Part shown: in pieces, positions 2,795-62,287 of the stretch
Position numbering within the stretch: the first letter of the stretch is position 1
How the letters are laid out: every line of letters begins with the position of its first letter
Source: Thermoanaerobaculia bacterium
Lineage (GTDB): Bacteria > Acidobacteriota > Thermoanaerobaculia > Multivoradales > UBA5704
Direction of reading: 5' to 3'
Length of the DNA stretch: 64,000 bases
Assembly (NCBI GenBank): GCA_036002325.1
Contig: DASYTJ010000012.1
Location: 61,457-125,456 of the forward strand
Translations under genes and position numbers: made by a program
The notes under the pieces: generated by a model
What the model was told of the DNA's origin: nothing
Seen by the model: only the letters and a program-made list of their open reading frames with translations
Database searches by the model: none

Positions 2795-5700
2795 GTGGAA
2801 GCATTCTTCGTCCTCGTCGGGCTCGGGCTTTTGGGCATGGTGGCCGCAGCGCCGGTTCTGGCTATCATCGCCCTCGGGCGTGCGCGGCGTCTGGAGGCGC
2901 GCGTCGACATCCTGCAGACCGAGCTGACGGTCCTCAGGAGACACGTCGAGGCCTTCAAGACGGCGCCTTCCAGCCTGCCTGACGTTGAGGCGGTCGCCGC
3001 GCCGCGGCCTGAGCCGCCGCCGAAGCCGACCCCGCCGCCTGTTCCTGCCGTCGCGCCCGCGATGCCGGCCGCACCGCCGCCGGCCGCCACCGTGCCGCCG
3101 CGCCCCGTGCCGCCGATGACGGCTCCGGCGCCGCGGGTTGAGGCGAGAATCGAGCCGCGGCTCGAGCCGTCTCCGCCAATGCCTCCCGCTCCGCCGGCGC
3201 CTGCGGCGCCGCGGTTCGACTGGGAGAGCCTGCTGGGGCTGAAGGGAGCCGCCTGGCTGGGCGGCATCACGCTGGTCATCGCCGGCATCTTCCTCGCCAA
3301 GATGGCCTACGACGCCGGCTTCTTCAATCCCACGTTGCGCGCCGCCGCCATGGTGCTCGCCGGCGTCGGCGGGCTCATCTGGGCCGAGGTCAGCCTGCGC
3401 CGCGGCTATGTCACCACGGCCAACGCCGTCTCGGGCGCGGCCATCGCCGTCCTCTACACCGCCTTCTACGCGGCCCACGCCGTCTGGCACCTGCTGCCGC
3501 TCGGGCTCACTTTCCTGATGATGGCGCTGGTCACGGTGGTCGCCGGAGTGGTGGCCATCCGCTACGACGCGCTGTTCAGCGCCCTGCTCGGCCTGCTCGG
3601 CGGCTTCGCCACGCCGATCCTGCTGTCGACCGGCGAAGACCGGCCGGTGAGCCTCTTCTCCTACATCCTGCTGCTCAACCTCGGGCTCATGGCGGTCGCT
3701 GCGAAGAAGCGCTGGCATGGCCTCGTGCTGCTGGGGCTCGCCGGCACCTTTTTCATCGAGGCCGGCTGGGCCGCGAAGTTCCTGGCGCCGGAAAAGCTGA
3801 CGATCGGACTGCCGGTGTTCCTGATTTTCGGGCTGCTCTACCTCTTACTGCCGGCGATCGCCAAGCAGGAAGAGTCGCCGTCGTTGCTGCGGGCCGGCGC
3901 CGGGGGCATCGCCGTGCCGTTCCTCTTCGGCCTCTTCCTCGCCGGCAGCGCCCGCTACACCGGCGAGTGGCCGTTGCTCTTCGGCTATCTCGCGCTGCTC
4001 GACGCGGCGCTGATCGCCATCGCGCTGCTCCGCGGCCGGACCATCCTGCTGATCGGCGGCGCCGTCGCCACCGGCTTGACGCTGCCGCTCTGGGCGTTTC
4101 AGGGCCTCCGGCCGGCGGCGCTCTGGGGCCCGACGCTGGCGGTGATCGGCCTGGCGGCGCTGCTCAACCTGCCGGCGCGGCTGGCGCGACGGCTCGCGCC
4201 GCAGCGGCTGGAAGAGGACCGGGACGCCTACGAAGGCGCCGGCATCACGGCGGCGGCCGGCCTCGGCATCTACGCGCTCATCCTGGCGGAACGGGCGGCC
4301 GAACCGCCGTGGCCGTTCGCCGTCCTGCTCGCGGCGCTCACCCTTCTCCTCCTCGAACGTACCGGCGAGGAACGCCTGCGCTTCGTGATGCCCGTCGGCG
4401 CGACCGGCCTCGCGTTCCTGACGCAGATCTGGTTCCATCACGGCACGGCGGGCCCGACGCTGTGGCGCAACCTCGCCGTGCCGGTGCTCTTGGCGATCGT
4501 GCTGTCGCTCGTCGCCGCCCGCCGCGCCCGCGCGCCCATCAACGCCCTCGAGGACGAAGGAGGCGCGGTCGGGGCCACCATCGTCTCCGTACTCGGCTTG
4601 ATGGGCTGTCTGACCCCCGAGCTGGCAGCAGATCCCCTGCCGCTCTTCGCCGCGCTCGCCGTCTACGCCGTCCTGCTCGTCGTCTCGGCCCGGCGGCGGG
4701 ACTGGACTCCTCTCGTCGCGGCGGCTCTCGTTCTTTCGGCGGCCTTCGCCGTGGGATGGCAGGAAGGCTATTTCGAGGCGGCGGGCGGTGATCTCGCGGT
4801 CGTGCTGTCGATCTACGGCGTCTTCTATCTGGCGTTCCTCGTCCTGCCCTTCGCGCTCGCCGCGACGGTGGCTCCGGAGTGGCAGGAACGGCGGCTGCCG
4901 TGGATCAGCTCGGCGCTGGCCGGCCCGGCCTTCTTCCTGCCGCTCTACCGGGCGGTGTCGATCGGCTGGGGGAAGGCCTACATCGGTGCGCTGCCGCTGC
5001 TCCTGGCGGCGCTCAGCGTCGCGGCCGTGGCCGGCGTGAGGCGCCGCTTCGCCGCCGCGCCCGAGGGGACGCCGGAGGCGGGCCGCCGCCTCGGGTATCT
5101 GGCGCTCTTCTCCGCCGTCGCGCTCGGCTTCATCGCCGTGGCGATCCCGCTGCAGCTCCACCGCCAATGGATCACGGTCGGCTGGGCCCTCGAGGCCGCC
5201 GCGGTCTGGTGGCTGTTCGGCAAGCTGCCGCACCCGGGCCTGAAGTACTTCGGCGCGCTGCTCTTCGCCTTCGCGGGTGTGCGGCTGCTGGCGAATCCGG
5301 AGGTGCTGCGCTACGAGGAGCGCGGCCTGCCGATCGTCAACTGGCTGCTCTACACCTACGGCGTTCCGGCCCTCTGCTGCCTCGTCGGCGCCGTCTGGTT
5401 GAAGCGGGCGGAGGCGGCGCGGCAGGGCGCGCCGGACTACGACTTCCTCGCCGGAGACCGGAAGGTCCTGCCGCCGGCCGCGGCGGGCCTCGGCCTCATC
5501 CTTCTTTTCGCATTGATCAACCTGGAGATCATCGACTTCTTCTCCACCTCCCGGTACGTGGAGCTCAGCACGGAGCGCCAGCTCGCCCGCGACCTGACGA
5601 TGTCGTTGGCCTGGGGGCTCTACGCCATGGCGCTGCTGTTGACGGGCCTCTGGCGCAAGCTGCGGGCGCTGCGCTTCCTCTCCCTCGGCTTCCTGCTGCT

Positions 5701-5907: not shown

Positions 5908-6020
5908 CTAGCTCTTATCCCCGCCGCCCTTTGCCAACAGCCTCGCCCTCCCGCCGCGCCAGCTCCACCGTTGCGGCTTCCTTCCTGGCGGCTTCGCAGA
6001 ACATCCGCTTGCCCGCCTGC
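5908..6020. repeat. Direct repeat copy A (about 110 bp) flanking methyltransferase gene
   Basis: about 85% identical to 6785-6900, with a perfect ~55-nt core (cgccgcgccagctccaccgttgcggcttccttcctggcggcttcgcagaa). Confidence 0.8.
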
Positions 6021-6026
6021 GCAGGT

Positions 6027-6773
6027 CTAGATTGCGGCCTTCGAGTTTCTCCAGACCATGGTGATGCCTTCGCGAAGGGAGCTCGGCAGGAGCCGGTAAA
6101 CAGCGTTTTTGAGAGCTCCTAGGGCCACCTTCCGTCCCGCGGCCTCTCCGGATTCGTGATGCGCGAATCTCGCGTCGAAGTAGAAGGCCACCGTACACTG
6201 CTCGACTTGAAATCCCAGCTCAGCCGCCAATCCGGCGAGCTCTCTACGGGTGTACTCCCGGAAATGACCAGGATTCTGGGGGTCCAAGCGAATCATCTGG
6301 GAGGGGTTACGACCGAGCAGCAGCTTCAACCTCTTGGGCAGCGAGGCGGCGTTGGGCGTTTGCAGAACGAGACGACCACCGTCGCTCAACAGCGTCCGAA
6401 CGAAGCTCAGCACCAACTGAGGAGACGTGTAAAGGTGCTCGAGAACCTCGGCCATCACCACAAAGTCATATCTCGGGAGGTCGCGCCGCCAATTTTCTCT
6501 TCGCTGAGCCAGATTCAGATCGAACGCGAAGTGCCTGCCTTCGGCGGTCACTCGGTCCTCGCCGAACCCTAGCGAGTCGACCGCGATGCCGAATCTCTCC
6601 CGGATGAGCGTGGTCAACCGCGACGGGCCGATGTCCAGAACCTTCGAGTCTGTTCCAAGACCGTGTTTGGCCAGCACCTCCAGCAGGTAGGCATACCGCG
6701 CCGCGTGATAGGCCACATATCCTTGATCGTCGCCTCGGATGGCGCGCGCTGACAGCTCCGACGCCCTTCTCAT
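6027..6773 (-). CDS. Class I SAM-dependent methyltransferase
   Basis: 248 aa; VLDIGPS (motif I), FDFVVMAEVLEHL, GGRLVLQTPN; visibly lower GC than neighbours. Confidence 0.7.
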   Translation of the reverse strand: MRRASELSARAIRGDDQGYVAYHAARYAYLLEVLAKHGLGTDSKVLDIGPSRLTTLIRERFGIAVDSLGFGEDRVTAEGRHFAFDLNLAQRRENWRRDLPRYDFVVMAEVLEHLYTSPQLVLSFVRTLLSDGGRLVLQTPNAASLPKRLKLLLGRNPSQMIRLDPQNPGHFREYTRRELAGLAAELGFQVEQCTVAFYFDARFAHHESGEAAGRKVALGALKNAVYRLLPSSLREGITMVWRNSKAAI

Positions 6774-6784
6774 CGACGCCTAGC

Positions 6785-6900
6785 CCTTATCCCCCACCCC
6801 CCTCTGCCTCTTGCCGAAAGCCTCGCCCGCCCGCCGCGCCAGCTCCACCGTTGCGGCTTCCTTCCTGGCGGCTTCGCAGAATATTCGCCTGCCTGGGAGA
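6785..6900. repeat. Direct repeat copy B flanking methyltransferase gene
   Basis: See copy A; lies between methyltransferase start and GH47 stop. Confidence 0.8.
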
Positions 6901-6950
6901 TCCCATCGTGGTTCAGGTCCGCAGCTCGCAGCCATCCACGCCGGCCAGGC

Positions 6951-8318
6951 TCACCGGCTCCGTTTCAACGGGTGCGCTTCCGTGTTGAATACCACTTTTT
7001 TGAGGTCGAGCGTGTCGTCGGGCGCGAAGAGGAGGTAGAGGTACTTGAGCGTCTCGGCCAGGAAGTAGCTCGGCATCAGGTCGCCCTTCTCCTTGGTGGT
7101 GACGTCTTTGAGGACCGTGTAGCCGGCGTCGGTGCGGCAGTGGGCGGCGAGCCCCTCGACGAAGGTCTTTCCCATCTCCAAGTATCGCGGATCCTTCGTC
7201 AAGCGGTGGAGGATGTAGGCCGACTCCATGATCTCCGGCCGCAGTTGGTAGCCGGGCGAGGTGATCTTCATCGTCTTGTAGTCGAGGACCTCGGGCTCGA
7301 TGCCTTGGAGGTTCCACATCTTGTAGGCGGAAGCCTGGAGGCGGCGGGCGCGGCCGAGATCGCCGCCGAGCGCCAGGACCGCCGGCAGGAAGGCGTGCAG
7401 GGCGCCGAACTCGGTGGCCGTTCGCTTCCCCGTCCTCATGTCGGCCTGCCCGTACCAGAGTCCCGTCGGCGCGTCGTCGGCCAGGCGCCGGTCGAGCGCG
7501 CGGCGGCTCTCCCGCCACATCCGGTCGCAGTCCTTGTCGCCGAAGAGGAGCGAGCACTTCAGAAGGTACTCGTAATAGGAGTCGATGCCGCCGCCTACGT
7601 GGCTGGCCGGGCTCACCCACTCGCCGGTCTCGACGTCGATCTCCTCGCCGACGAGGCCGAGCGGCGAGCGGCGGTTGTAGAGCTGGACGAGGGCGTTCTT
7701 GGCCTTGTCGAAGAAAACCGGCTTGCCGGTGAGCCGCGCCAGGGTGCCGAATTCGAGGACGAGCGTGCCGATCTCGGCGGGGTTGGAGCGGGCGCCGGAG
7801 GTCTTGCCCGTCTTCAGGTTGACGTACATGTAGGGCATGCCGGTCGGCGAGCTGAAGGCGGGTAGGAGGCGCGTCCCCAAATCCTCGGCGAGGCGCAGCA
7901 GCCGCGGATCGCCGGTCATCTGGTAGCCCGAGAGCAGTCCGCCGAGGAGCCGGATGGTGATCTCGAAGTTCTTGACCGGGACGTCCTGGTCGAAGGAGAG
8001 CTTGTCGCCGACCAGCGCCTGTGCCTTCGCCGCCTCGTCCTTGAGGCCCATCAGCAGCAGCGTGTCGAGGGCGTCGACCGGCGTCATGAGCAGGGAGCCG
8101 GCGTGCCAGTCGCGCGGCGCTTTGCTCAGGGGCCGGAGCTCGTCGTGCCCCCAGGCATACTGCTCATAGGCCTGCCAGGCATGGAGCATCTCGGCGCGGA
8201 CGCGGCCGGCCATCTCGGCGCGGTTGACGGGACCGGGGCCCGCGGACGGACCGGCGCCGGCCGATGCTTCAAATAAGGAGAGGACGAGGATGGCGGGGAC
8301 AGCGGGGCGGAGTTTCAT
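6951..8318 (-). CDS. Glycoside hydrolase family 47 (alpha-1,2-mannosidase-like), secreted
   Basis: GH47 motifs (AWQAYEQYAWGHDELRP, FEITIRLLGGLLS, GGGIDSYYEYLLK, ETLKYLYLLF); likely start at MKLRPAVPAILVLSLF signal peptide (8318); ORF track extends to 8393. Confidence 0.7.
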   Translation of the reverse strand: MKLRPAVPAILVLSLFEASAGAGPSAGPGPVNRAEMAGRVRAEMLHAWQAYEQYAWGHDELRPLSKAPRDWHAGSLLMTPVDALDTLLLMGLKDEAAKAQALVGDKLSFDQDVPVKNFEITIRLLGGLLSGYQMTGDPRLLRLAEDLGTRLLPAFSSPTGMPYMYVNLKTGKTSGARSNPAEIGTLVLEFGTLARLTGKPVFFDKAKNALVQLYNRRSPLGLVGEEIDVETGEWVSPASHVGGGIDSYYEYLLKCSLLFGDKDCDRMWRESRRALDRRLADDAPTGLWYGQADMRTGKRTATEFGALHAFLPAVLALGGDLGRARRLQASAYKMWNLQGIEPEVLDYKTMKITSPGYQLRPEIMESAYILHRLTKDPRYLEMGKTFVEGLAAHCRTDAGYTVLKDVTTKEKGDLMPSYFLAETLKYLYLLFAPDDTLDLKKVVFNTEAHPLKRSR

Positions 8319-8491
8319 GGGAACGAATTCTGACAGACGCCGAGGCGAAGCACCACGGCAGGCAATCGGCAATCCAAAGGTGAAATTCCGCATGGAGACG
8401 GCAATTTAAAGATTTCTCGTGATTCTCCGCGACGGCGCCTCCCTTGCTGGAAGGCAGCACAGAAGCCCATACCGGCGGTACGTTTCTTGTC

Positions 8492-8497
8492 TATAAT
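8492..8497 (+). promoter_or_regulatory. Putative -10 element (TATAAT) in divergent promoter region
   Basis: TATAAT preceded by TGTC; located in 8394-8748 intergenic region between divergent GH47 and sensor kinase genes; no clear -35. Confidence 0.25.
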
Positions 8498-8748
8498 GGT
8501 AAGGTTGGCCTTTGGCGAGCGGGGGGGATTTAAATGTATTTCAGGCGGCCCCCCGGGTTATGGCTGCTTCGCGCAGAGCGCGGCTCCCCAGTGCACATCC
8601 TTGCTGTTTGATTCTTGCTCCGTCCGCCTCTTCCGGGGGGAGTACGGCCGCTCCCAGGAGTTGCGATGCGGAAGAATTTAGAATATTCTGACTCAAGCAG
8701 TACGAAAGTTTCGTCCGGGATCGGCGGCCGGGTCCGGGGTGGCAGGTC

Positions 8749-10440
8749 ATGGCGGTGAAGAAGCACGCGCAGCCGCGGCGGACGACGCCGACGCTCGAGC
8801 TGGGGATCGCGGGCTGGCGCGTGCCTCTCCATGCCCACATCGCCTATCTGTGGGAGACGGAAGCGGACTTCGCCGCCGCGCTGGGCTTCGTGGAGGCCGG
8901 CCTGCGGGGCGGCCAGCACAGCGTGGTGATCGTCGCTCCGCAGGACGGCGACAGGATTCGCGCCATTCTCCGCGAGCGCGGCTTGGAGGTCGAGAGCGTT
9001 CAGGTGCGCGGGCGGCTGAGCATGATCGAGCGCGGCCAGACGGCGCAGCAGATGCTCGACGAGATCGCCGCGACGTTCGAAGCGGCGCTCGCGGCCGGGG
9101 CGCCGCACGTTCGTCTCTTCGGCGACGTCGGCTGGGGCCGCGCGAACAGCACGCCCGACGCCGAGCTGCTCTCCTATGAAGCCCGGCTTACCGACATCGC
9201 GGAGAGATTTCCCTGCGTCATTCTCTGCACTCACGAGGTGCACTCCCTGACCGGCCTGATCGCGCGTCACGGCGTGTTCGCCACCCACCCGCGGATCCTG
9301 GAGGAAGGCGGGGTCCTCGGCAATCCGTACTTCGTGCCGCTCGACCGGTTCCGCGAGCGGCTCGGCGCGATCGGCGCCGATCTGGCGGAACGCCAGCGGG
9401 AGCGGGAAGCCCTGCGGCGGCAGACCGAGATCCTGCAGGCCATCTTCGCCAACAGCCCGGCGATGATCGCGTTGATCGATCCCGCGGGACGCCTGATGCT
9501 GGCCAACCGGGAGTGGGAGCGGGTGCTCGGTTGGACGCTCGAAGAAGCGCAAAGGATCGACATCGGGGCGGAGCTCTATCCCGATGCGGAATATCGCGCC
9601 GAGATGCGCCGCAGGACCGACCAGGCGGAGCGCCGCTGGACCGAGCTCACCATGCGGACGCGGGACGGCAGGACGATCGAAGCGTCATGGGCGTGGACGC
9701 GCCTCTCGGACGGCAGCCGGATCTGGTTCGGTAGGGACGTCACGGAGCGCAGGCGGGCCGAGGAAGCCCTGCGGCAGTCCTATGACGAGCTGCGGGCCTT
9801 GTCGGAGCGGTTGCGCGCCGTGCGGGAGGAGGAGAGCGCGCGCATCGCGCGCGAGGTGCACGACGAGGTGGGCCAGTCGCTGACCGCCGTGCGCCTCGAC
9901 GCGGATTGGCTGCAGAAGCACCTCGCCTCCGCGACCGGCGCCGCGGGCGGAGAGATCCCCGGCAAGCTGCGGTCGATGGTCGAGCTGCTCGATAGCGCGC
10001 TGGACTCGGTGCAGCGGGTGGTCACCGAGCTGCGGCCGGGGGTTCTCGACGAGCTGGGTCTCGAAGCCGCCGTCGAATGGTACGTGAAAGAGTTCCAGCG
10101 GCGCAGCGGCCTCTCCTGTACGCTGCGGTCCAACCTGGGCGACGCGCCGCTCGATCCCGACCGCGCGACGGCGCTGTTCCGCATTCTCCAGGAAGCGCTC
10201 ACCAACGTGGTGCGCCACGCCGAGGCCACGGCGGTCGAGATCCGGCTGTCGGCCGAGGAGGGCCGCATCGTCCTCGCGGTGAGCGACAACGGGCTGGGCA
10301 TTCCCGAGGAGAAGCTCGCGAGCTCCCGGTCGCTGGGCCTGGTCGGCATGCGCGAGCGGGCGCGCTCGCTGGGCGGTGAGGTCGCGATTCGCAGGGCTGC
10401 CGGCCGTGGCACCACGGTCGAGGCGAGCCTGCCGCTATGA
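8749..10440 (+). CDS. Sensor histidine kinase with N-terminal MEDS domain, PAS domain and HisKA_3/HATPase_c (NarX/DegS-type)
   Basis: 563 aa; MEDS-like N-terminus (HIAYLWETEADFAAALGFVEAGLRGGQHSVVIV), PAS (AIFANSPAMIALIDPAGRL), H-box VHDEVGQSLTAVRLD, ATPase G-boxes (DNGLGIP, GLVGMRERA). Confidence 0.75.
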   Translation: MAVKKHAQPRRTTPTLELGIAGWRVPLHAHIAYLWETEADFAAALGFVEAGLRGGQHSVVIVAPQDGDRIRAILRERGLEVESVQVRGRLSMIERGQTAQQMLDEIAATFEAALAAGAPHVRLFGDVGWGRANSTPDAELLSYEARLTDIAERFPCVILCTHEVHSLTGLIARHGVFATHPRILEEGGVLGNPYFVPLDRFRERLGAIGADLAERQREREALRRQTEILQAIFANSPAMIALIDPAGRLMLANREWERVLGWTLEEAQRIDIGAELYPDAEYRAEMRRRTDQAERRWTELTMRTRDGRTIEASWAWTRLSDGSRIWFGRDVTERRRAEEALRQSYDELRALSERLRAVREEESARIAREVHDEVGQSLTAVRLDADWLQKHLASATGAAGGEIPGKLRSMVELLDSALDSVQRVVTELRPGVLDELGLEAAVEWYVKEFQRRSGLSCTLRSNLGDAPLDPDRATALFRILQEALTNVVRHAEATAVEIRLSAEEGRIVLAVSDNGLGIPEEKLASSRSLGLVGMRERARSLGGEVAIRRAAGRGTTVEASLPL

Positions 10441-11069
10441 CCCGGATCCTGCTGGTCGACGATCACACGGTCGTACGTCAGGGATTGAAGCAGATCCTCG
10501 GCGAGACGGCGGAGGCCCTCGACTTCGGCGACGCGGCGAACGGCGCGGAGGCTCTCCAGCAGGCGCGCAGCGGCGAGTGGGATCTCGTCGTTCTCGACAT
10601 GTCGCTGCCGGACCGGAGCGGGCTCGACGTGTTGAAGGAGCTGCGGCAGATCCGGCCGCGGCTGCCGGTCCTCGTGCTCAGCATGCATCCGGAGGAGCAG
10701 CTCGCGGTGCGGGCCTTGCGGGCGGGAGCGGCCGGCTACGTGACCAAGAGGACGGCCGCCGCGGACATCGCGACGGCGGTCAACCGGGTACTGGCGGGCG
10801 GCCGGTACGTCAGCCCGGCGCTGGCCGAGCGGCTGGCGGCGGAGCTCCGGGCCGGCGATGGGAAGGCGCCGCACGAGACGCTCTCCGACCGCGAGTACCA
10901 GGTCTTCCGCCTGCTGGCGGCGGGGCACACGGTCAAGCACATCGGCGGGCAGCTCCGCCTGAGCCCGCAGACGGTGAGCACCCACCGCTCGCGGATCCTG
11001 GAGAAGATGGGGCTCTCGACCAACGCCGAGCTGACCCAATATGCGATCCAGAACCGTCTCCTTGGGTGA
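10437..11069 (+). CDS. Response regulator, NarL/FixJ (LuxR-HTH) family
   Basis: 210 aa; REC domain (ILLVDDH...DLVVLDMSLPDRSG) plus LuxR HTH (LSDREYQVFRLLAAGHTVKHIGGQLRLSPQTVSTHRSRILEKMG); 4-nt overlap with upstream kinase. Confidence 0.85.
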   Translation: MTRILLVDDHTVVRQGLKQILGETAEALDFGDAANGAEALQQARSGEWDLVVLDMSLPDRSGLDVLKELRQIRPRLPVLVLSMHPEEQLAVRALRAGAAGYVTKRTAAADIATAVNRVLAGGRYVSPALAERLAAELRAGDGKAPHETLSDREYQVFRLLAAGHTVKHIGGQLRLSPQTVSTHRSRILEKMGLSTNAELTQYAIQNRLLG

Positions 11070-11255
11070 TTTCCCTCACCCCGATCGTACGGCGTACGAG
11101 GCCGAAATCGTCGCGCCGCCGATACCGGCTCCTCGAAGCGGAACGGTACCCTAAGCTAGGGGAGAGGCGGGAGGTGGCAACAAGTGCTTGACCTTGGAGT
11201 CATGTCCAGGTTTTACGTTTTCCTTCATGAGGTATTTCTTCCGCCTTCAGGCAGG

Positions 11256-11693
11256 ATGAGCCATGAGCTCAAGATCGGCGAGCTCGCGGAGCGTTGCGGG
11301 GTTTCGCGAGACGCATTGCGCTTTTATGAGCGCGTGGGATTGCTGCGTCCGCCGCGCCGGACGCCGTCGGGACACCGCGTTTACGACCAGGATGCGGTGC
11401 AGCGCCTGGAGCTCATCCGGCGCAGCCAGCAGATCGGTCTCACGCTCGACGACATCCGCGAGCTGCTGCGGGTCCAGGGGCTGCCTGGGGACGAGGCCCG
11501 TGAGCGGGTCGCCGAGCGGCTGCGCGCGCGCATCGAAACGGTGGACCAGCAGCTCGCGACCTCCGGGACCTTCCACCGCAAGCTGGCCGAGGCCCTCGAG
11601 CTCTGCGAGAGCGCGCCGGCGGAATCGGAATCCTTCTCCCTTCTCGACCTCCTCACGCGGGTCTCGGAGAGCGCGGCCGGGCCGGGGCATTGA
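11256..11693 (+). CDS. MerR family transcriptional regulator
   Basis: Start at MSHELKIGELAERCGVSRDALRFYERVGLL (MerR HTH), C-terminal coiled-coil. Confidence 0.75.
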   Translation: MSHELKIGELAERCGVSRDALRFYERVGLLRPPRRTPSGHRVYDQDAVQRLELIRRSQQIGLTLDDIRELLRVQGLPGDEARERVAERLRARIETVDQQLATSGTFHRKLAEALELCESAPAESESFSLLDLLTRVSESAAGPGH

Positions 11694-11702
11694 TGTGCGC
11701 TG

Positions 11703-13314
<1,612 letters not shown>

Positions 13315-13325
<11 letters not shown>

Positions 13326-13692
13326 AACGATCCTGATCGTCGACGACAACCCGGCGAACCTCAAGCTCGCCCGCGTGGTGCTCACCTCTCAAGGCTACGA
13401 CGTGCACACCGCCGCCGACGCCGAGGAGGCGCTGGATGCGCTGCGCAGCTTCACGCCGCGGCTGATCCTGATGGACATCCAGCTCCCCGGCATGGACGGT
13501 CTGGAGCTGACGCGGCGGCTGAAGGCCGATCCCGACCTGCGCGGCATGGTCATCGTCGGCCTGACCGCCTACGCCATGAAGGGCGACGAGGACAGGGTGC
13601 TCGCGGCGGGGTGTGACGGCTACATCGCCAAGCCGATCGACACCCGGCGCTTTCCGGAGCAGATCGCGGAGTACCTCAAGGCGTCGCCATGA
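13315..13692 (+). CDS. Single-domain response regulator (CheY-like receiver)
   Basis: Start [23 protein letters not shown]...[20 protein letters not shown]...GYIAKP; overlaps upstream kinase stop by 11 nt. Confidence 0.8.
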
Positions 13693-15678: not shown

Positions 15679-15708
15679 GTAGGGGCGGCCCCGCAGGGCC
15701 GCCCCTAC
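15679..15708. terminator. Perfect palindrome GTAGGGGCGGCCC-cgcag-GGGCCGCCCCTAC (REP-like, related to MLRPY element)
   Basis: 13-bp stem/5-nt loop immediately after hybrid kinase stop (15665); shares GTAGGGGCG...CGCCCCTAC arms with the 26835/62258 element. Confidence 0.5.
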
Positions 15709-16342: not shown

Positions 16343-18978
16343 GCCTGTTCAAGAAGCACGACGACCTTCTGGACGACGCGATCGGCCAGGTGGCGAACGA
16401 GCCCATCGACCCTCGCCAGGTCGAAGCGGCGGCGGCCCGTGTCTGGGCGCGGCTGGCGCAGGGCGGAGCTGCCGAAACCGCCGCGCCGGCGGTGGCCGAA
16501 GCCGCTCCGATCTCCGGCAGCCTGCACGGCTGCGAGGACTTCCAGTCCCTGATCCCCGCCTATCTGCGGGGCGAGCTGTCCCCGGCGCGCGCGCTGCTCG
16601 TCGAGGACCATACGCGGAGCTGCGTGCCCTGCCGCCGGGCGCTCCGTGAGGCCCGTGAGGGCCACAAGGTGGCGGCCGCGCGGCCGGCGGCGGCGAAGTC
16701 TTGGAGCCGCGACCGCCGGGTGTGGATGCCGCTCGCCGCGGCTCTGGCCGTGGTCCTCGGCTACGGCCTGCTGGTGGTGATTCAGGAGATGCTGGCCGGC
16801 GGTGCCCGCATGGCCCGCATCGAATCCGTGGCAGGCACGATCTACCGGGTCGCCGCCGATTCCAGCCGGCCGTTGGCCGCCGGCGAGACGATCGACGAGG
16901 GCGAGGAGATCCGCACGGCGAAAGGCTCGACGGCGGTGGTGCGCATGGCGGACGGCTCGCTGATCGAGATGGGCGAGCGGGCGAGCTTCGCGCTCGACGC
17001 CGGCCGCAAGGGCAACACCATCGAGCTGGCGCGGGGCAAGGTGATCGTCCAGGCCGCCAAGCAGCGCCGCCGGCACCTGTTCGTGGCCACCCGCGACGCG
17101 CTGGTCTCGGTGACCGGCACGATCTTCTCCGTCAACTCCGGCACCAAGGGCTCGCGCGTGTCGGTGATCGAGGGCGAGGTGCGGGTCAAGCAGGCGCGGA
17201 CCGATGCGATCCTCCACCCGGGCGACCAGGTGACGACGCACACCAGCGTCGAGACCGTGCCGATCCGCGAGGAGATCGCCTGGAGCCGCAACGCCAAGCA
17301 GTACGACGAGCTCCTGGCCGAGCTGACCGCCCTGGGCAAGGAGATCGACGCGCGGGTGGAGCGGCCGGGACTGCGCTACTCGACGCGGCTGCTGGATCTC
17401 GCCCCTGAAGGGACGACGGTCTGGATCGCGCTGCCGAACCTGTCGCGCAGCCTCGACGAGACGCAGCGCATTCTCGATCAGAAGATCGCCGAGAGCCCGT
17501 CGCTCGCCCAGTGGTGGAGCGAGACGCTGCGCTCGACCGGCAACGAGCAGAAGTTCCACGACATGATCGAGAAGATCGGCGCCCTCGGCCGCTATCTGGG
17601 CGACGAGGTGGCCGTGGCCATGGCGGCCGGCGGCAACGACGACTGTGAGCCCGTGCTGCTGGCCGAAGTGACGAATGAGGCGTCCTTCCGCGCCACCCTC
17701 GAGCAGGAGCTCGCGGGTATCAACGCCAAAGAAGGCAAGCCGGTGCGGATCGTGGACGATCTCGCCACCGCTCCCGAGGGCGCGGGCATGCTGCTGTGGA
17801 TCCACGACGGTCTGCTCATCGCCTCGCCCGATATCGCCGAGCTGCGCGAGGTGGCGGCGATCACCGCCGGCGGCTCCAACCCGTTCACCGGCTCCAGCTT
17901 CCATGGCCGCATCGCCCAGGATTACCGCGACGGCGCCGGCTGGCTGTTCGCGGCCGATCTCCACACGCTGGTGCGCAAGGGGCAGGAGAAGGAATCTTCC
18001 GAGTCGCAGCAGATGGCCGAGAAGCTGGGCGTGCTCGACCTCGACCACTTCATCATCGACCGGCGGGAGATCGACGGCCGGGCCGAGACCCGCGCCGCCT
18101 TGACCTTCGACCAGCCGCGGCGGGGGATCGCCTCCTGGATCGCCGCGCCGGCGCCGATGGGCAGCTTGAGCTTCTTCTCACCTGACGCAAACCTTGCGGC
18201 GGCTTTCGTCGTAAAGAGCCCTGTGACGATTCTCGACGAGTTGCTCGCCATCAATCCCGAGTTCGCCCGCGAGCTGGCGGAAGCGCAGGCCAAGCACGGC
18301 TTCGATCTGCGCAGCGATCTCGCGGCGCCTCTGGGCGGCGAGATCGCCGTCGGCGTCGACGGGCCGGTGCTGCCCATGCCCTCCTGGAAGCTGGTGGCCG
18401 AGGTGTACGATCCGGCGCGCTTGCAGCAGACGTTCGAGCGGGCGGTTTCCCGCCTCAACGACGAGCTGCGGGCTGAAGGCAAGGCCGGGGTTCAGATCAC
18501 CAACGAGCAGAGCGGTGGCCGCACCTTCTACGCCGTCCAGGGGACCGAGCCGAAGGTCGAGCTCCATTACGTCTTCGAGGACGGCTACCTGCTGGCCGGC
18601 CCCAGCCGGGCGCTGCTCGAGCGGTCGCTCCAGCAGCGGGACTCGCGCGTGACGCTGGCCACCACGGCCAAGTTCCGCGACCTCCTGGGTCCGGACGGTC
18701 AGGTGAACGTCTCGGCCCTGGTCTACCACAACGTGGCGCCGCTGGCGAAATCCGCCTCCAAGGTGCTGCCGGAAGCCGCCACCCATCCGCGCGGCGGCCC
18801 CGACATCGGCAAGTTCCTGGCGTCGCAGGGGCCGACGCTCTACTACGCCTACGCCGAGCCGGACCGCATCGTCTTCGCCGGCAGCAACCAGAACCCTCTG
18901 GGCCTGAACCTCGGCACGCTGGCCGGCCTCGGCGGCATCGCGGGGTTGGCGAACTCGGGGCACGAGGAGGCCCATTAG
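16339..18978 (+). CDS. Anti-sigma factor: N-terminal zinc-finger (HxxxCxxC), TM helix, FecR-like periplasmic domain plus about 550-aa C-terminal extension
   Basis: 879 aa; [17 protein letters not shown]-like motif, TM ([20 protein letters not shown]), FecR-like beta segment ([20 protein letters not shown]...GKVIVQA); 4-nt overlap with sigma gene. Confidence 0.65.
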
Positions 18979-26600: not shown

Positions 26601-26824
26601 AAACGAAGGTGCTGGCCGATCAGCTCGGCAAGGCCGAGAGCCGGCTGGAGGCGTTCGAGCGCGGTGAAGTGGCGGCGGTCAACCGCGAGCTGGCGAAGCG
26701 CAAGCTCGAGCCGCTGACGGCCAAGAGCCGCGAGGAATGGGAGAAAGAACAGGGCCAGCGAACGGCGGCGCTACCCGCCTGGCTGCCGTTCTCGTTTCTG
26801 GCTCTAGAGGTCGCGGCGGACTGA
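23642..26824 (+). CDS. BNR/Asp-box repeat beta-propeller protein (sortilin/VPS10-like), secreted
   Basis: 1060 aa; signal peptide; at least 10 Asp-box motifs (SNDGGVAWK, STDGGDTWQ, TSDGGKTWK, STDGGETWR, SDDVGESWR, SRDKGDSWE, TRDGGAHWT, TADFGKTWT, SVDGGARWA). Confidence 0.65.
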   Translation: MQWKPKMILCLAAAGLAIMAGAARGAEVEIDSNTFGGLEARSIGPAVMGGRIAAIDAVPQDPLTIYVGAAGGGVWRSNDGGVAWKPVFDEHVQSIGAIAIDPKNPKTVWVGTGESWTRNSTSVGDGLYRSTDGGDTWQRVGLENSERIARIQVSPADGNTVWVCATGHLWDSHEERGVYKTSDGGKTWKRVLYADADTGCSDLAVDPQDPAILFAGLWQFRRNPWSFSSGGKGSGLYKSTDGGETWRPLASGLPAGEKGRIAVAVAPSRPSVVYALVEAEKTALYRSDDVGESWREVNSSFNLQVRPFYFARLAVDPTDFKTIYKPGLMLTVSTDGGKTFTAAIGLGGLSGPHGDHHALWINPQNPSELVLGTDGVVYMSYNKGLRWRFLRALPVSQFYHVSYDMNRPYRVYGGLQDNGSWSGPSSAIGGIQNRDWFNIGGGDGFWAYSDPTDPDLVYAEYQGGEISRRRVSTGEEKSIKPLPGAGEPPYRFNWNTPIALSPNEPGTIYMGAQFLFRSRDKGDSWERISPDLTTNDPKKQQQLKSGGLTRDNSTAENHTTIFAISESPKNGKVLWVGTDDGNLQVTRDGGAHWTNVAPNVPGLPKATWVSCVESGRFDEGTAFATFDGHQAGDMKTYVYRTADFGKTWTPLASDALSGYAHAIRQDLENPELLFLGTEMGLFVSVDGGARWARFTGKLPMVAVRDIAIHPRESDLILATHGRGVYIVDDITPLRKLTREALEADVTMLPSRTATMAIPAGVQEFPGDDEYFAANPEEAATITYYLKKRHLFGDLKVEVYDAKGQLISTLPGGKRRGINRVSWPMRLPPPRLPPANSLVIGSQYALFGPRVLPGTYTVKLIQGDKTYTSEVRLVPDPRSRHSDEDRAAQHETAMELYGMLGRLTYVADTVKALGDAAQKRVEALPKADRLRQQLGSLAGALESFRATLVATSEGGWLSGEEQLREKMAKVYGAVNGYDGRPTRPQLDQTKVLADQLGKAESRLEAFERGEVAAVNRELAKRKLEPLTAKSREEWEKEQGQRTAALPAWLPFSFLALEVAAD

Positions 26825-26834
26825 GGGGTGGTCC

Positions 26835-26864
26835 TGTAGGGGCGCAGCATGCTGCGCCCCTACA
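26835..26864. terminator. REP-like perfect palindrome (cctGTAGGGGCGCAGCATGCTGCGCCCCTACaa), bidirectional terminator candidate
   Basis: 28-30 nt perfect palindrome between convergent BNR gene (ends 26824) and rpsU (ends 26930); identical 33-nt copy at 62255-62287, variant at 46467-46488. Confidence 0.6.
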
Positions 26865-26929
26865 AAGCAAAACGGGAGGAAGCTCAGAGGCTCCCTCCCG
26901 TCTGCTGGCGCTCGGACGGAGCTACCGTC

Positions 26930-27139
26930 TCAAGCCAGGCCCTGGCGGCGCTCCTCCGCCAGCTTGCGCAGGATCTTCTTGCGCGCTTGAACCGCCTTGC
27001 GCTTGCGCTTCACCGAGGGCTTCTCAAAGTGCTGGCGCTTGCGCAGCTCGGTCAGAATTCCCGACTTCTCGACCTTGCGCTTGAAGCGGCGCAACGCGTT
27101 CTCGAAGCTCTCTTCCTCGCGCACGTGCACAACAGGCAT
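26930..27139 (-). CDS. rpsU: 30S ribosomal protein S21
   Basis: 69 aa [48 protein letters not shown]... canonical S21. Confidence 0.9.
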
Positions 27140-33573: not shown

Positions 33574-33646
33574 GGGTCCATAGCTCAGCGGTGAGAGCGT
33601 CCGGCTCATAACCGGCAGGTCCCTGGTTCGAATCCAGGTGGACCCA
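33574..33646 (+). tRNA. tRNA-Met (anticodon CAT; could be tRNA-Ile2 if lysidinylated)
   Basis: Cloverleaf: acceptor GGGTCCA/TGGACCC, D arm GCTC-AGCGGTGA-GAGC, anticodon loop CTCATAA, T arm CCTGG-TTCGAAT-CCAGG; CCA not encoded. Confidence 0.85.
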
Positions 33647-36747: not shown

Positions 36748-36776
36748 CCCCCTCTCCAGCTAAGCTGGAGAGGGGG
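36748..36776 (+). terminator. Strong hairpin CCCCCTCTCCAGC-taa-GCTGGAGAGGGGG
   Basis: 13-bp perfect stem 40 nt after nucleotidyltransferase stop, just before hutI start; no U-tract. Confidence 0.4.
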
Positions 36777-46466: not shown

Positions 46467-46488
46467 GGGGCGCAGCATGCTGCGCCCC
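46467..46488. terminator. REP-like palindrome variant GGGGCGCAGCATGCTGCGCCCC
   Basis: Between convergent TPR gene (ends 46435) and cupredoxin-like gene (ends 46500). Confidence 0.5.
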
Positions 46489-46499
46489 ACTTAAGAGGT

Positions 46500-47270
46500 T
46501 TACGCCTTCGGCTTGAAGTCGAAGGTGACCGTCGCGGTCTGGTTGGGGGCGATTGTCACTTCCTGGGTCTGGGTGCCCAGCTTCTCGTGCCAGGCCTCGA
46601 GGGTGTACTTGCCGGGAGGTAGCTTGTCGATCGAGAAGGAGCCGTCCTCGCCGCTGACCGCGTAGTACGGATGCGGCACCACGCCGACCCAGGCGGTCAT
46701 CCAGGGGTGGACGTCGCACTTGATGTGAACCGCCACCTCCGGCTTGTCGAAGACCTTGTCGATCGGCGGCAGACCCTGCGGCTGCGCCTGGTTGAACTCC
46801 TGGTTCGTCGTCGGCAAGGCATGGACGTTGTGCAGCGTCGCGTCGGTGTTCTTGACCGACAGCGTCTGGCCCGTCTGCATGCCCTGGACGCGCGGCGTAT
46901 ATTGGCAGCCGACCTGGTCGATCTCCTTCTTCTCCGCCGGCGCCGGGAAGGTTTTCCCCTCGAGGCCGGTCTTGACGTAGACGAAGACGTTGCCCAGCTT
47001 GCCGTCCTTGACAGCGATCTCGTTGGTGTCGACCGGGGTCGGGTGCAGGCCGGCGCAGATCGGATCGGCGTTCATGGCGATCGGCGTGTCGGTGTCCGGC
47101 CCCGCGTAGGTGACCGTACCGCTGATGCCGCCGGCATCGGCCGGCGCCGCAGCCGGCGCGCTGGCCGCCGGGGCCTCCGTGGTCTGCTCCTCATCCTTGG
47201 CTCCCCCGTGGCAACCTGCCAGCACCGGCAGCGCGCAGAGCGCCAGAATCCACAATCTGTTCCTGCTCAT
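46500..47270 (-). CDS. Cupredoxin-like (type-1 copper site candidate) lipoprotein; carboxypeptidase-regulatory-like beta-sandwich
   Basis: 256 aa; RBS AAGGAGG; lipobox LAGC; candidate Cu ligands HNVH ... C-DV-H-PW-M (C-x2-H-x2-M); last gene of cytochrome bc operon; ORF track merges it into a 1297-aa artefactual ORF. Confidence 0.5.
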   Translation of the reverse strand: MSRNRLWILALCALPVLAGCHGGAKDEEQTTEAPAASAPAAAPADAGGISGTVTYAGPDTDTPIAMNADPICAGLHPTPVDTNEIAVKDGKLGNVFVYVKTGLEGKTFPAPAEKKEIDQVGCQYTPRVQGMQTGQTLSVKNTDATLHNVHALPTTNQEFNQAQPQGLPPIDKVFDKPEVAVHIKCDVHPWMTAWVGVVPHPYYAVSGEDGSFSIDKLPPGKYTLEAWHEKLGTQTQEVTIAPNQTATVTFDFKPKA

Positions 47271-47389
47271 ACGAAAACCTCCTTGTTGGGGTGGAAGACT
47301 TTGTCGATAGGGAGAAATCCTGCAAGACGCGAGCCGGCCGCGGTAGCACCGTGGCCCGGACTCCGGCTCAAATTTACTACAACTCACGG

Positions 47390-50300
47390 TCAACGGCCGC
47401 CGGCTCCTCCCGCAGTGACCGCCGCCCCGGGAGCCGCGACGGGGACCATCGGCTGGCGGCCGCCGGAGATCGCCCAGATATGGTCGCGCAACGCCGTCGA
47501 GACCTTGTCCGCATCGGCAAGCCAGGCGTTCATCTCCGCCTCGGAGGAGAACCACCGGAGGATCTGCTGCTTCTGGGCGGCGAAGGCCGGCGAGGCGAGC
47601 TGGAACGGCACGGGGGACACGAGCTTGCCGGAGGGATCTCGCGAGAAGAAGTTCGGCATCCGCGTGCTCGGCACCCAGGCTTGCGGATCCTGAATCCACA
47701 ACGGCACCCAATCGTAGCGCAGGCGGTCGTGGGCCATCAGCAGCGATGGCGCCAAATCCCCCGAGGCCGCCGCCGCCGAAACCGGCGCGGTCGGATGGCA
47801 GCGCGCGCACTGCAGCATGCCGAACACCACGCCGCCCACGGCGAGGCTCCGCGGATCGGGTGCCGGCGGCTCGGAGAGGAAAGGCGAGCGCTGCTCGCGG
47901 GCCTGGAAATAGGAGATGACGGTGTTGGCCTGGTCGTCCGTGAAGCCGAACGTCGGCATGCGGACGGTGAGCCACGGCCGCATCTTCACCCGGCTCGGGT
48001 CGTGCAGATAGCTGAACAGCCAGTCGCCCTGCACGCGCGCCCCTTCGGCGGCGAGGTTCGGCGGCAACGAGGCTTCGTTGTCGCCGAGCAGGCTCTTGAT
48101 GGCGCGGCCGTGCCCCTCGATCAGGTGGCAGCCCTGGCAGTTGTAGCGGGTGATCAGCTTGCGCCCCTCGGCGAGCGCCGCCGTCCGCGCGTCGTTGCCG
48201 GCGCGGCGGGGCGCGAGCGCCGATTCCTTGGTGAAGCCCATGACGTTGGCGAGCACCGCCGTGGCCTCGCGCTGCGACATGCCGAAGTTCGGCATCTTGA
48301 GCAGCTCGTTGTAATCCTTGGCGGCCTCCTTGCCTTCGTCCCACATCCGCGGCCGCAGCAGCTTGTTGAACACCCAGTCCTGCCGCGTGTGCGGCACTTC
48401 GTGAACGTGGCCGAAGTCGAGCTGGTGGAGCGGCTTCGAGCCCTCCTGCGTCAGCTCGGTGCCGATCGGCTTGGTGTTCTCGAAGCCCTTGATGTCGTGG
48501 CAGCCGTAGCAGCCATACTTGGCGATCGTCTGCTCGCCGAGATAGACGTTGCGCTCGGCCTCTGACATGGCGGCGAGCTTGGCGCGGCTGCGATCCATGG
48601 TGTAGAGGTTCTGGAGATAGCCGAGCGCCAGCTCGTCGCGCACGCCGCGGTCGACGGCCGGCAAGGCCGCGTTCTCGTACGCGCGGTTGTGGTTCGGCGC
48701 GTCGAGCAGGTACGCCGTGATGTCCGCCGCCTCCTGATCGGTCAGGCGGAGGTTCGGCATGTTGGTGTCGGGGAAGTACTGCTTCGGGTTCCTGATCCAG
48801 GCGTAGAGCCAGCCGCGCGACACCTTGCTGCCGGTGTTGACCAGGTTCGGGCCGTGCAGGCGGTTGATCAGAGGAAAGAAATCGTCGCGCTTGGCCTTGG
48901 CGTCGAGGAGATGGCAGCCGCCGCAGCCCACAGTCTCGAAGAGCTGCTTGCCGTGCGCCGGATCGCCCATCGGCACGGCCACGTCGTCGTAGACCGGCCG
49001 CTCCGACTTCGCCCACAGGTAGGAGACGATGCCGTTGATCTCCGCCTGCTGCCGCTTCAGGTTGGCCGGCGTGGTGGTGTTCTCCTGGTTGAAGAAGTGG
49101 GGCATCCAGGTCGTGGGATGGAAGTTGCGCGGCGCCTCGATCCACTTGTAGGCCCAGCCGGGATTCGTCTTGCCGGCGAGGCGCAGCAACGAAGGGCCCG
49201 CCTTGCGCAGGCCCGTGAAGCCCGGCAGGTTGATGTTGTGGCAGCCGTAGCAGCCCATGTGCGCGATCAGCTCGCGCCCCACCTCCTGCTCGTCCGACTT
49301 CGGCGTCCAGACGCCGCTGGCGTGACAGCCGACGCAGCCGGACTCGGCGAGGTTGGCCGGCAGGATGGGGTAGTCGAGGAACTGCGGCTGCGACCAGCCC
49401 CACTTCCGCTGCCACTCCCCCTTCTTCTCCTCCCAGGCCTTCTTCGACGCCTCGTCGTGAGCCTGCAGCAACGGCAGGTTGTGGCCGGCGCGGGCGAATT
49501 CGGTGGCGCGGTCGAGGCCGCCGTGGCAGATGGTGCAGCCGAAGCGGCTGTAGGGGTGGGGCGAGGAGTCGCCCACGAACAGGTCGATCCGCGGATGGCT
49601 GCGGAACGGCTCCGGCCACTCCACCTCTTTGGTGTTCGGGTCGTCCAGGAAGCCCGGACGGTTCGCCGCCACGTGGCAGGTCATGCAGCGGTCGACGCGG
49701 TCGATGTTGGTGAAGTTGATGTTCTGGTAGAGCCCCGGCAGGATGACCTGCTCGACCTTGAGGCTCGGCTTCAGGAAATCCATCAGCGGCGCGTTGAGGA
49801 GGAAGTAGTCGACCCCTTTGCCGAGGCTGGCGATGCGCGTCTCGATATTTTCGACGCCGCTCTGCAGGTCCTTGAGTTTCTTCTCCGCGCCGGTGAGCAG
49901 CGCCTGCTTGTCGGCCAGCCGGCGCTGCGCGTCGTCGAGGCCGTCCTGCGCCTCCTCCTTCTTGTGCTGGGCGTCGATGAACGCCTTCCGCGCCTCCTCG
50001 TAGTCCTCTGCCGCCGCCGCCGCGGCGCCCTTGTCGCCCGTCTGCAGCGCCGTGTCGTACTGGAACTTGTAGGCGTCGGAGCGCGCCTTGGCGCCCTTCC
50101 ACGCCGTATCGGCGATGTTGTACTGGGTCTTGCGGTCCTTGATCTCGTCCTCCAGCTTGTCGAGATCCTGGCGGTGCTGGTCGAGCTCCGCCTGCGCCCG
50201 CTGAATCTCCTGCTTGAGCTGCGCGAGGTCGTTCTGGTTCAGCCGCTGCTTCTCCGCCTCGGCCTCCTTCTCCAGCTTCTGCCGCTCCAGGCTGCGGAAC

Positions 50301-50461
50301 TCCGACTGGATCCGCTTCCACGGCTGCGCGTAGTCCGCGAAGGCCATCCACAGCGTCACCGCCAGCAGCGCGAGGGAGCTGATGGCGAACCACATGTTCA
50401 TACGGCCGAAGTTGTAGTGGCGGTCGGGACGCTTCTCAGGCGGTGTAGTGGGCGGTGTCAA
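47390..50461 (-). CDS. Octaheme c-type cytochrome with N-terminal TM anchor and coiled-coil
   Basis: 1023 aa; eight CxxCH motifs (CMTCH, CTICH, CVGCH, CYGCH, CGGCH, CYGCH, CQGCH, CARCH). Confidence 0.8.
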
Positions 50462-61604: not shown

Positions 61605-62237
61605 ATGAAGCGTATTTCGACCCTCGCCCTCTGCGCCGCTCTGCTCCTCGCGATGTTCGCGGCGCCGAACCTGACTCGGGCGGCCGGCAAGAGCGACAAG
61701 CCGCGCCTCGCCGTCCTGGAGTTCAAGAACAAGGCTGATAATCAATGGTGGTGGCACGGCGGCGCCGAGGCGGCGCAGGACGTGTTCGTCACCGAGCTCG
61801 TCAAGAGCGGCAAGTTCCGCGTCGTCGAGCGCGAGCAGCTCCAGGCCCTGATGCAGGAAAAGAACCTGACTCTCTCCGGCGATGTCGATCCGGCGACGGC
61901 GGTGAAGGTGGGCAAGCTCCTGGGCGTCAACTACCTGCTGACCGGCGCCGTGACCGAATACGGAGTGACCGACAAGAGCGCTCATGGTTCCGGCGTCGGC
62001 CGCCTCCCCGGCTTCTCTGCCGGCAAGCGCAGCTTCGTCGCGGCCCTGAACGCCCGGCTGATCGACACCTCGACGGGCGAGATCGTCTGGGCTGACGAGG
62101 CGAGCGAGGAAGAGAGCAGCGTGAAGGTCTCGGTGGGCGGCTTCGGCGGCGGCGTCGACGACGACCGGATGTTCGACAAGGTCATGAAACCCTGCATCCA
62201 GAAGCTCACCGCCAGCCTCAAGGCGGCCGACCTGTAA
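61605..62237 (+). CDS. CsgG-like (curli production assembly/transport component family) lipoprotein
   Basis: RBS GGAGG; signal MKRISTLALCAALLLA; LAVLEFKNKA, VVEREQLQALMQE, YLLTGAVTEY typical of CsgG/DUF fold. Confidence 0.55.
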   Translation: MKRISTLALCAALLLAMFAAPNLTRAAGKSDKPRLAVLEFKNKADNQWWWHGGAEAAQDVFVTELVKSGKFRVVEREQLQALMQEKNLTLSGDVDPATAVKVGKLLGVNYLLTGAVTEYGVTDKSAHGSGVGRLPGFSAGKRSFVAALNARLIDTSTGEIVWADEASEEESSVKVSVGGFGGGVDDDRMFDKVMKPCIQKLTASLKAADL

Positions 62238-62257: not shown

Positions 62258-62287
62258 TGTAGGGGCGCAGCATGCTGCGCCCCTACA
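62258..62287. terminator. REP-like perfect palindrome, identical copy of 26835-26864 element
   Basis: Between convergent CsgG-like gene and kinase-TonB gene. Confidence 0.6.

Follow-up and report, generated by a model that had tools for sequence, protein, structure and literature searches.

Within the 64,000-nt stretch of DNA analysed here (hereafter the window), exact searches placed the palindromic 28-mer GTAGGGGCGCAGCATGCTGCGCCCCTAC at positions 26836–26863 and 62259–62286, and its 22-nt core GGGGCGCAGCATGCTGCGCCCC at 26839–26860, 46467–46488 and 62262–62283. Dinucleotide shuffles gave 0 matches for the 28-mer and for the core, and the chance expectation for the three copies in the window is none. 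A preliminary description, made from the letters of the window without database searches, had reported the palindrome twice and a shorter variant at 46467–46488, and both observations were reproduced, the variant being the exact core with its feet missing. Its statement that two of the copies (here copies 1 and 3) share an identical 33-nt context needs correction: the shared context is real, but it spans 34 nt (TCCT, the 28-mer and AA), and the perfect palindrome measures 30 nt (TGTA...TACA), with copy 1 extending over 26835–26864.

All three copies lie between convergently transcribed genes. Copy 1 (26836–26863), a double-foot 28-mer of the structure GTAG-GGGCGCAGCATGCTGCGCCC-CTAC, separates a Sortilin/BNR gene (plus strand, stop at 26824) from rpsU (minus strand, stop at 26930); it begins 12 nt past the Sortilin/BNR stop and ends just outside the rpsU terminator. 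The latter is a canonical intrinsic terminator (26870–26903, minus strand) with a 14-bp stem followed by TTTTGCTTTG, and is not part of the element. Copy 2 (46467–46488), an exact match to the core, sits between a gene for a TPR protein (plus strand, stop at 46435) and a minus-strand ORF ending at 46500 that encodes a CarboxypepD_reg-like C-terminus. It lacks the GTA/TAC feet, being flanked by CTG...ACT instead, and has probably decayed beyond mobilisation. Copy 3 (62259–62286), again a double-foot 28-mer, is found between CsgG (plus strand, stop at 62237) and a gene for a kinase/TonB_C protein (minus strand, stop at 62294). The ORFs 26849+, 26620− and 61599−, all initiating with MLRPY and already described as spurious, begin at the central ATG of the palindrome. 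In single-stranded DNA, copy 1 folds into a hairpin of −16.5 kcal/mol (z = −5.1), and for the 28–30 nt palindrome z ranges from −5 to −6.

A fourth element, which the preliminary description had missed, lies at 15679–15708 (GTAGGGGCGGCCCCGCAGGGCCGCCCCTAC). It carries the same double GTAG feet around a different interior and is located in a unidirectional gap, with a hybrid histidine kinase gene ending 14 nt before it and an ECF sigma factor gene following downstream. A half-element related to GTAGGGGCGGCCCCGCAGGGCCGCCCCTAC is present in the orthologous BNR/rpsU spacer of one relative (L142). This palindrome suggests a second REP family in the source lineage. The window also contains an unrelated, near-perfect 29-nt palindrome at 36748–36776 (CCCCCTCTCCAGCTAAGCTGGAGAGGGGG, a single occurrence) and a tRNA gene at 33574–33646, the latter being the only family match when the whole window was scanned against Rfam 15 at the gathering threshold. 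On the minus strand, 46500–50461 is covered by two long overlapping ORFs in different frames (46500–50393 and 47390–50461), of which the second encodes cytochrome c domains. ORF 46500–50393 is probably far longer than the actual gene that ends at 46500, because its sole match is the C-terminal CarboxypepD_reg-like one.

The copy next to rpsU can be compared with orthologous sites. Metagenome contigs of relatives with a 77–86% identical BNR protein have kept the BNR-rpsU arrangement as well as the rpsU terminator. The element itself is absent from the orthologous spacer in L125, L127, L130 and L132–L135, and the megablast alignments of L127 and L133–L135 resume at window position 26864, the first base past the 28-mer. 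Without the 28-mer the window reads ...GGTCCT followed directly by AAAGCAAAACGGG, and the corresponding sequence in L125 is ...CGCCCT followed by AAAAGCGAAACGGG. To judge from these alignments, the empty sites are consistent with a clean 28-nt insertion. Different GTAG-footed palindromes occupy the same spot in L126, L139 and L142, and no copy of the core was present in about 120 kb of DNA from the relatives L125–L151. Among 85 double-foot copies from the wider sample described below, flanking direct repeats were no commoner than expected by permutation; thus, insertion involves no target-site duplication, as expected of a Y1 HuH enzyme.

Small repeats have a hot spot in the orthologous BNR-rpsU spacer of these relatives. 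In L137 it holds a long palindromic insert rich in CCCTCTCC/GGAGAGGG, in L150 and L151 hairpins of the AGCCCCGAAGGGGCG type, and in L129 and L131 duplicated CCGAGGTGGTCACAGCCTGTGACCACCTCGG hairpins; in the last two, rpsU is no longer the adjacent gene.

Scanning species-representative genomes with the 22-mer yielded at least 119 loci with at least 125 copies among the matches listed. The main hosts among these were Gemmatimonadota, Acidobacteriota and Chloroflexota, followed by Binatia, Planctomycetota, Bacteroidota, Myxococcota, Desulfuromonadales, Cyanobacteria, Armatimonadota, Verrucomicrobiota, Zixibacteria, Calditrichota, Acetothermia and others. At least 15 phylum-level groups share the identical 28-mer. 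Among the matches listed, G+C content varied from 39% to 73% between loci, and several metagenome-assembled genomes (MAGs) had three to four loci each among these matches. Neighbouring genes and G+C content differ between loci. Most carrier genomes are MAGs, and a few carry doubtful taxon labels (Gracilibacteria and Patescibacteria at 59–66% G+C); Trichloromonas acetexigens is an isolate, and matches were also located on contigs of 0.7–7 Mb from Acidobacteriota, Gemmatimonadota, Chloroflexota, Planctomycetota and Armatimonadota.

Aligning the 254 flanks of 127 copies delimited the element. Directly outside the core stands TAC (GTA at the opposite end), its three positions being conserved in 87, 85 and 91% of the flanks, respectively, and no sequence conservation was detected past the GTAG/CTAC feet in this alignment. 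Both feet are present in 85 of the 127 copies and one foot in 33, and nine copies are footless. The stem base consists of G-C pairs (GTAG-GGGC...GCCC-CTAC). In three copies (L084 at 5742, L075 at 1536 and L108 at 5945) the flanks lengthen the palindrome by 5 to at least 12 nt. Extensions of at least 5 nt were expected in 0.2 cases; these copies may have been inserted at the centre of a pre-existing hairpin.

The gene context was assigned for 128 copies with a home-made ORF heuristic. By this measure 55 copies are located in unidirectional gaps, 28 in convergent and 8 in divergent ones, and 21 are apparently intragenic, the remaining 16 being too near the end of their locus. The element thus prefers unidirectional and convergent gaps to divergent ones, which it avoids, and is not specific to convergent junctions. 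The earlier observation that the copies sit exactly at convergent junctions applies to all three in the window but not to the larger sample, which is mostly unidirectional, and the suggestion of an insulator specific to such junctions is ruled out by the same counts.

All 14 intragenic copies inspected are translated in the frame that yields VGAQHAAPL, and none (0) uses the other open frame, RGAACCAPT. Pfam searches of eight intragenic cases showed genuine genes whose domains flank or enclose the insert (loci L004, L026, L036, L056, L059, L101, L103 and L110). They encode glutamate synthase (gltB), an amidohydrolase, tryptophanyl-tRNA synthetase (TrpRS), Mfd/TRCF (mfd), a Mur ligase in a genome of 39% G+C, SRP54 (ffh), an M20 peptidase and a Ser/Thr kinase. 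For annotation, the element marks short in-frame inserts within real proteins. It also explains, and allows the removal of, spurious ORFs containing MLRPY, GAACCAPT or VGAQHAAPL as well as N-terminal over-extensions, which are common in soil MAGs.

The sole gene family recurrently linked to the element encodes RAYTs (REP-associated tyrosine transposases, TnpA_REP). The preliminary description had proposed looking for such a gene: it was found in other genomes, but not by tblastn in the 64-kb window, and the window showed no synteny with the RAYT-bearing contigs. Three of the 119 loci among the matches listed contain a RAYT-like gene touching the element. In L020 (Gemmatimonadota) the gene (7000–7602, minus strand) has 28-mers on both sides, at 6971 and 7611. 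The gene of L107 (a Desulfuromonas MAG) contains an in-frame 28-mer, read as VGAQHAAPL, about 15 aa past HuH, and a second copy lies 55 nt upstream. In L108 (Dehalococcoidia), the RAYT gene (5969–8000) is located 20 nt from a 28-mer and is split by an IS3-family element, with orfA/orfB at 6414–7834 and the RAYT N-terminus at 7845–8000. The L107 protein matched the NF047646 model (REP-associated tyrosine transposase) with an E-value of 1.5e-18 and 67.1 bits, below the curated cut-off of 80 bits, and its match to PF01797 was just under the cut-off.

The L020 protein, used as a database query, retrieved 1405 homologues, among them several that JGI labels “REP element-mobilizing transposase RayT”. 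Of the 52 closest, about 22 had gene calls into which the upstream 28-mer had been read, so that it appeared as N-terminal MLRPY, GAQHAAP or GAACCAP. Contigs fetched for four homologues all show the arrangement of RAYT and 28-mer. The L124 gene (10001–10630) has five copies around it, L155/L156 have one copy on each side (9709 and 10449), L122 has one copy in the gene and one 1.4 kb upstream, and L121, the T. acetexigens isolate, combines an in-gene copy with REPIN-like doublets on both sides. In the latter genome the predominant form is an inverted doublet, GTAG-GGGCGCAGCATGCTGCGCCC-(~22 nt)-GGGCGCAGCATGCTGCGCCC-CTAC, with one foot per hairpin, present at about five sites in 20 kb (3079–3152, 9807–9880, 10622–10694, 17482–17554 and 17651–17723); a single 28-nt singlet lies at 7532. 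The 28-mer looks like the product expected from a central deletion in such a REPIN-like doublet.

In-frame copies between HuH and Tyr were found in the RAYTs of L107 and of the homologues P0066, P0071, P0079, P0081, P0091, P0097, P0099, P0109, P0115 and P0117, so that VGAQHAAPL stands 15–25 aa past HuH in L107 and in 10 of 120 homologues. In other homologues the same loop carries VGARHAVPL, RGTACRAPT or GEGSEPSPT, likewise encoded by palindromes. The type of palindrome in the gene equals the dispersed type nearby at the QHAA-type loci L107, L121 and L122; at L152 and L153, two RAYT loci with other in-gene types (at 10284–10311 and 10274–10302, respectively), no such agreement was evident within 20 kb, and the 28-mer itself was absent over the same distance.

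Among homologues P0055–P0120, the variable loop after HuH consists of translations of other GTAGGGG...CCCCTAC palindromes. VGARHAVPL and RGTACRAPT both derive from GTAGGGGCACGGCATGCCGTGCCCCTAC, read in two frames, and further loop-encoded types are GEGSEPSPT, AGFKPAPT and GRGEAFAANASPL.

The motifs of the L107 protein (NHVH, WQ and YIAANP in 197 aa) fit the signature of transposase subclass 2.4, and so do those of P0109. The L020-like clade has DHVH in place of NHxH, together with WQ and YIRDNP, and may belong to subclass 2.4 or to subclass 2.7, which it also resembles. The RAYTs of L020 and L107 are only about 44% identical, yet they are flanked by the identical 28-mer.

We consider it highly probable that the palindrome is a double-foot, GTAG-tagged REP, a non-autonomous element mobilised by a RAYT/TnpA_REP. 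This reading is well supported because the element has GTAG feet, flanks RAYT genes elsewhere, has an empty counterpart at the window locus and matches a published class, and the REP-type interpretation of the preliminary description has held up on the same grounds. Anatomy, RAYT linkage in other genomes, orthologous presence and absence, lack of target duplication and location bias were observed directly. The G+C-rich hairpin GGGCGCAGCATGCTGCGCCC carries the guide tetranucleotide GTAG on both strands. In the mechanism that we propose, a RAYT/TnpA_REP, presumably encoded elsewhere in the genome, would recognise the folded single-stranded hairpin together with its GTAG foot. RAYTs are HuH-Y1 single-strand DNA nuclease-ligases related to the IS200/IS605 transposases; by analogy, the enzyme would cut the hairpin and ligate it at new sites, leaving no target duplication, probably at replication forks. 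For this single-strand cut-and-paste chemistry we draw on the work on E. coli TnpA_REP and IS200/IS605 as it is cited in PMC6006769. Selection would then spare copies mainly in harmless places, i.e., past stop codons in convergent or unidirectional gaps and in-frame in tolerant protein loops, and the transcribed hairpin may secondarily block 3′-exonuclease.

The preliminary description had also offered a bidirectional terminator, and a primary role as a factor-independent terminator, or as a 3′-end hairpin that blocks read-through between convergent genes, deserves consideration. The hairpin is perfect and stable on both strands, the three window copies lie at convergent 3′ ends 12–29 nt past a stop, and for E. 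coli REPs, work cited in PMC6006769 and PMC3733652 reports a stabilisation of upstream mRNA and, in some cases, attenuated transcription. However, a run of at least four T within 12 nt accompanies only 11 of the 254 flanks, and a terminator scan did not call the element, finding only the separate rpsU terminator (26903–26870, minus strand). This terminator adjoins copy 1 and is conserved in relatives that manage without the REP. Most copies in the wider sample are away from convergent junctions, and a terminator would leave the RAYT linkage unexplained. In-frame copies also occur in gltB, mfd, ffh and the genes for Mur ligase, TrpRS and Ser/Thr kinase, where efficient termination would be lethal. 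Termination as the primary function of the element fails on the scarcity of T-runs and is very improbable.

Even less probable is an operator, or another site bound by a host protein that is widely conserved (a regulator, nucleoid protein or insulator), an interaction that would have kept the sequence identical. The perfect dyad symmetry is typical of sites of dimeric DNA-binding proteins, and an identical sequence at 39–73% G+C in many phyla could be read in the same way. Against such a site, the neighbouring genes share nothing, the divergent gaps, which contain promoters, are avoided (8 of 91), close relatives differ in presence at the same locus, copies lie within coding sequences, and the only recurrently linked gene family is RAYT. 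That the palindrome is a repeat of some other class (a DDE-transposon MITE, an integron attC site or a CRISPR-like unit), or that a shared assembly or binning artefact has feigned its spread across phyla, we regard as the least probable of these explanations. It draws on the predominance of MAGs and the few doubtful labels among the carriers. A MITE with target-site duplication is ruled out by the permutation-level flank repeats, and 28 nt is too short for a MITE bounded by terminal inverted repeats; arrays are absent. An artefact is contradicted by the presence of the element in the T. acetexigens isolate and on the 0.7–7 Mb contigs of five phyla, and by surrounding genes and G+C content that vary between loci.

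As a double-foot REP, the element has close counterparts among known systems. Quentin et al. 2018 (BMC Genomics 19:475, PMC6006769) defined TnpA_REP subclass 2.4, which corresponds to RAYT Group 4 of Bertels et al. 2017 (PMC5581495). Its REPs have a foot at either end (5′ GT[AG]G, 3′ C[TC]AC) and a stem that begins with G-C pairs; they flank tnpA_REP and, as in no other subclass, also occur in-frame inside it, between HuH and Y. Its transposases of about 190–200 aa (around 194 aa) have the motifs NH[IFV]H, WQ and YIxxNP/YIxNNP, and the subclass is scattered over Cyanobacteria, Bacteroidetes and various other phyla (PMC6006769). The double feet, the G-C stem base, the flanking and in-gene REPs and the scattered phyla all recur here, and the protein motifs recur in L107 and P0109. 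Since every anatomical feature matches the description of subclass 2.4, this kind of element is already known. Two differences stand out: REPs are species-specific according to Quentin et al. 2018 (PMC6006769), whereas at least 15 phylum-level groups have the 28-mer in identical form, and the L020-like RAYT clade, the most tightly flanked one, has DHVH and no in-gene REP. The same authors proposed that double-foot REPs arise from doublets by central deletion (PMC6006769). Di Nocera et al. 2013 (PMC3733652) described REPtrons, GTAG-tagged REPs in several phyla, a preference of GTAG REPs for unidirectional and convergent gaps, and intragenic in-frame copies, including some in repair genes.

With the REP/BIME system of E. 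coli and its TnpA_REP (RayT; structure 4ER8), as far as it is presented through the citations in PMC6006769 (Nunvar 2010, Ton-Hoang 2012, Messing 2012), the element shares the GTAG-footed, G+C-rich hairpin, the REPtron organisation (a RAYT flanked by its own REPs) and the extragenic 3′-end bias. According to that same literature, the REPs of E. coli form imperfect, bulged hairpins with a single foot and are mostly organised in BIMEs, whereas the 28-mer is perfect, double-footed and mostly a singlet; they belong to subclass 2.2 (DHLH, WE), which is given there as confined to Proteobacteria. The inverted doublets of T. acetexigens, around the RAYT and elsewhere, resemble the REPINs of Pseudomonas fluorescens (Bertels & Rainey 2011, PMC3116915). 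REPINs are doublets, however, whereas the window and most sampled genomes contain the 28-nt singlet, and vertical inheritance within genera is described for REPIN-RAYT systems, in contrast to the 28-mer, which crosses phyla. Intrinsic terminators have in common with it a G+C-rich hairpin directly past stop codons; the element differs from them in having no U-tract, in being a dispersed identical sequence linked to a transposase, and in occurring inside ORFs. In-frame insertion in housekeeping genes, DNA-repair genes included (here mfd), is shared with Rickettsia palindromic elements and intragenic REPs (PMC3733652). These belong to another sequence family, and here a single reading frame is used (VGAQHAAPL, 14 of 14).

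A search of the literature, including the two key papers with their supplements, did not find the sequence of the 28-mer. Besides this sequence, PMC6006769 and PMC3733652 also lack the finding that 15 or more phylum-level groups share it base for base, the one unusual feature of the element. Such identity contradicts the textbook view of REPs as species-specific and vertically inherited. The element adds a REP family from little-studied soil phyla (Gemmatimonadota, Acidobacteriota, Chloroflexota) to a field based almost wholly on Proteobacteria, and, being identical to the last base in different phyla, it lends itself well to testing for horizontal REP-RAYT spread.

Regarding the origin of this identity, we tentatively raise the possibility, which we hold to be rather unlikely as it stands, that a RAYT family carrying its own substrate in the HuH-Tyr loop forms a replicator spreading horizontally between phyla, in which one transferred gene would be a self-contained seed, able to build up the same REP population again after reaching a new host. 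Alternatively, an unusually rigid protein-DNA recognition code may have frozen the REP sequence over very long times. Six matches were obtained in 2.9 million viral contigs and none in a collection of 72,556 plasmids, and thus neither collection identified a vector for horizontal transfer. A rough neighbour-joining tree of RAYT cores showed partial, incomplete clustering by the type of embedded REP, at a resolution too coarse to distinguish transfer from constraint. The cultured carrier T. acetexigens, with its RAYT, singlets, doublets and in-gene copy, offers an experimental handle.

One of the RAYT loci, L122, shows a further peculiarity. Its RAYT gene with the in-gene REP is embedded in a type I restriction-modification operon (6777–13623), between hsdS and hsdR, overlapping the start of hsdR by 4 nt, and another 28-mer is situated between hsdM and hsdS (8571–8598).
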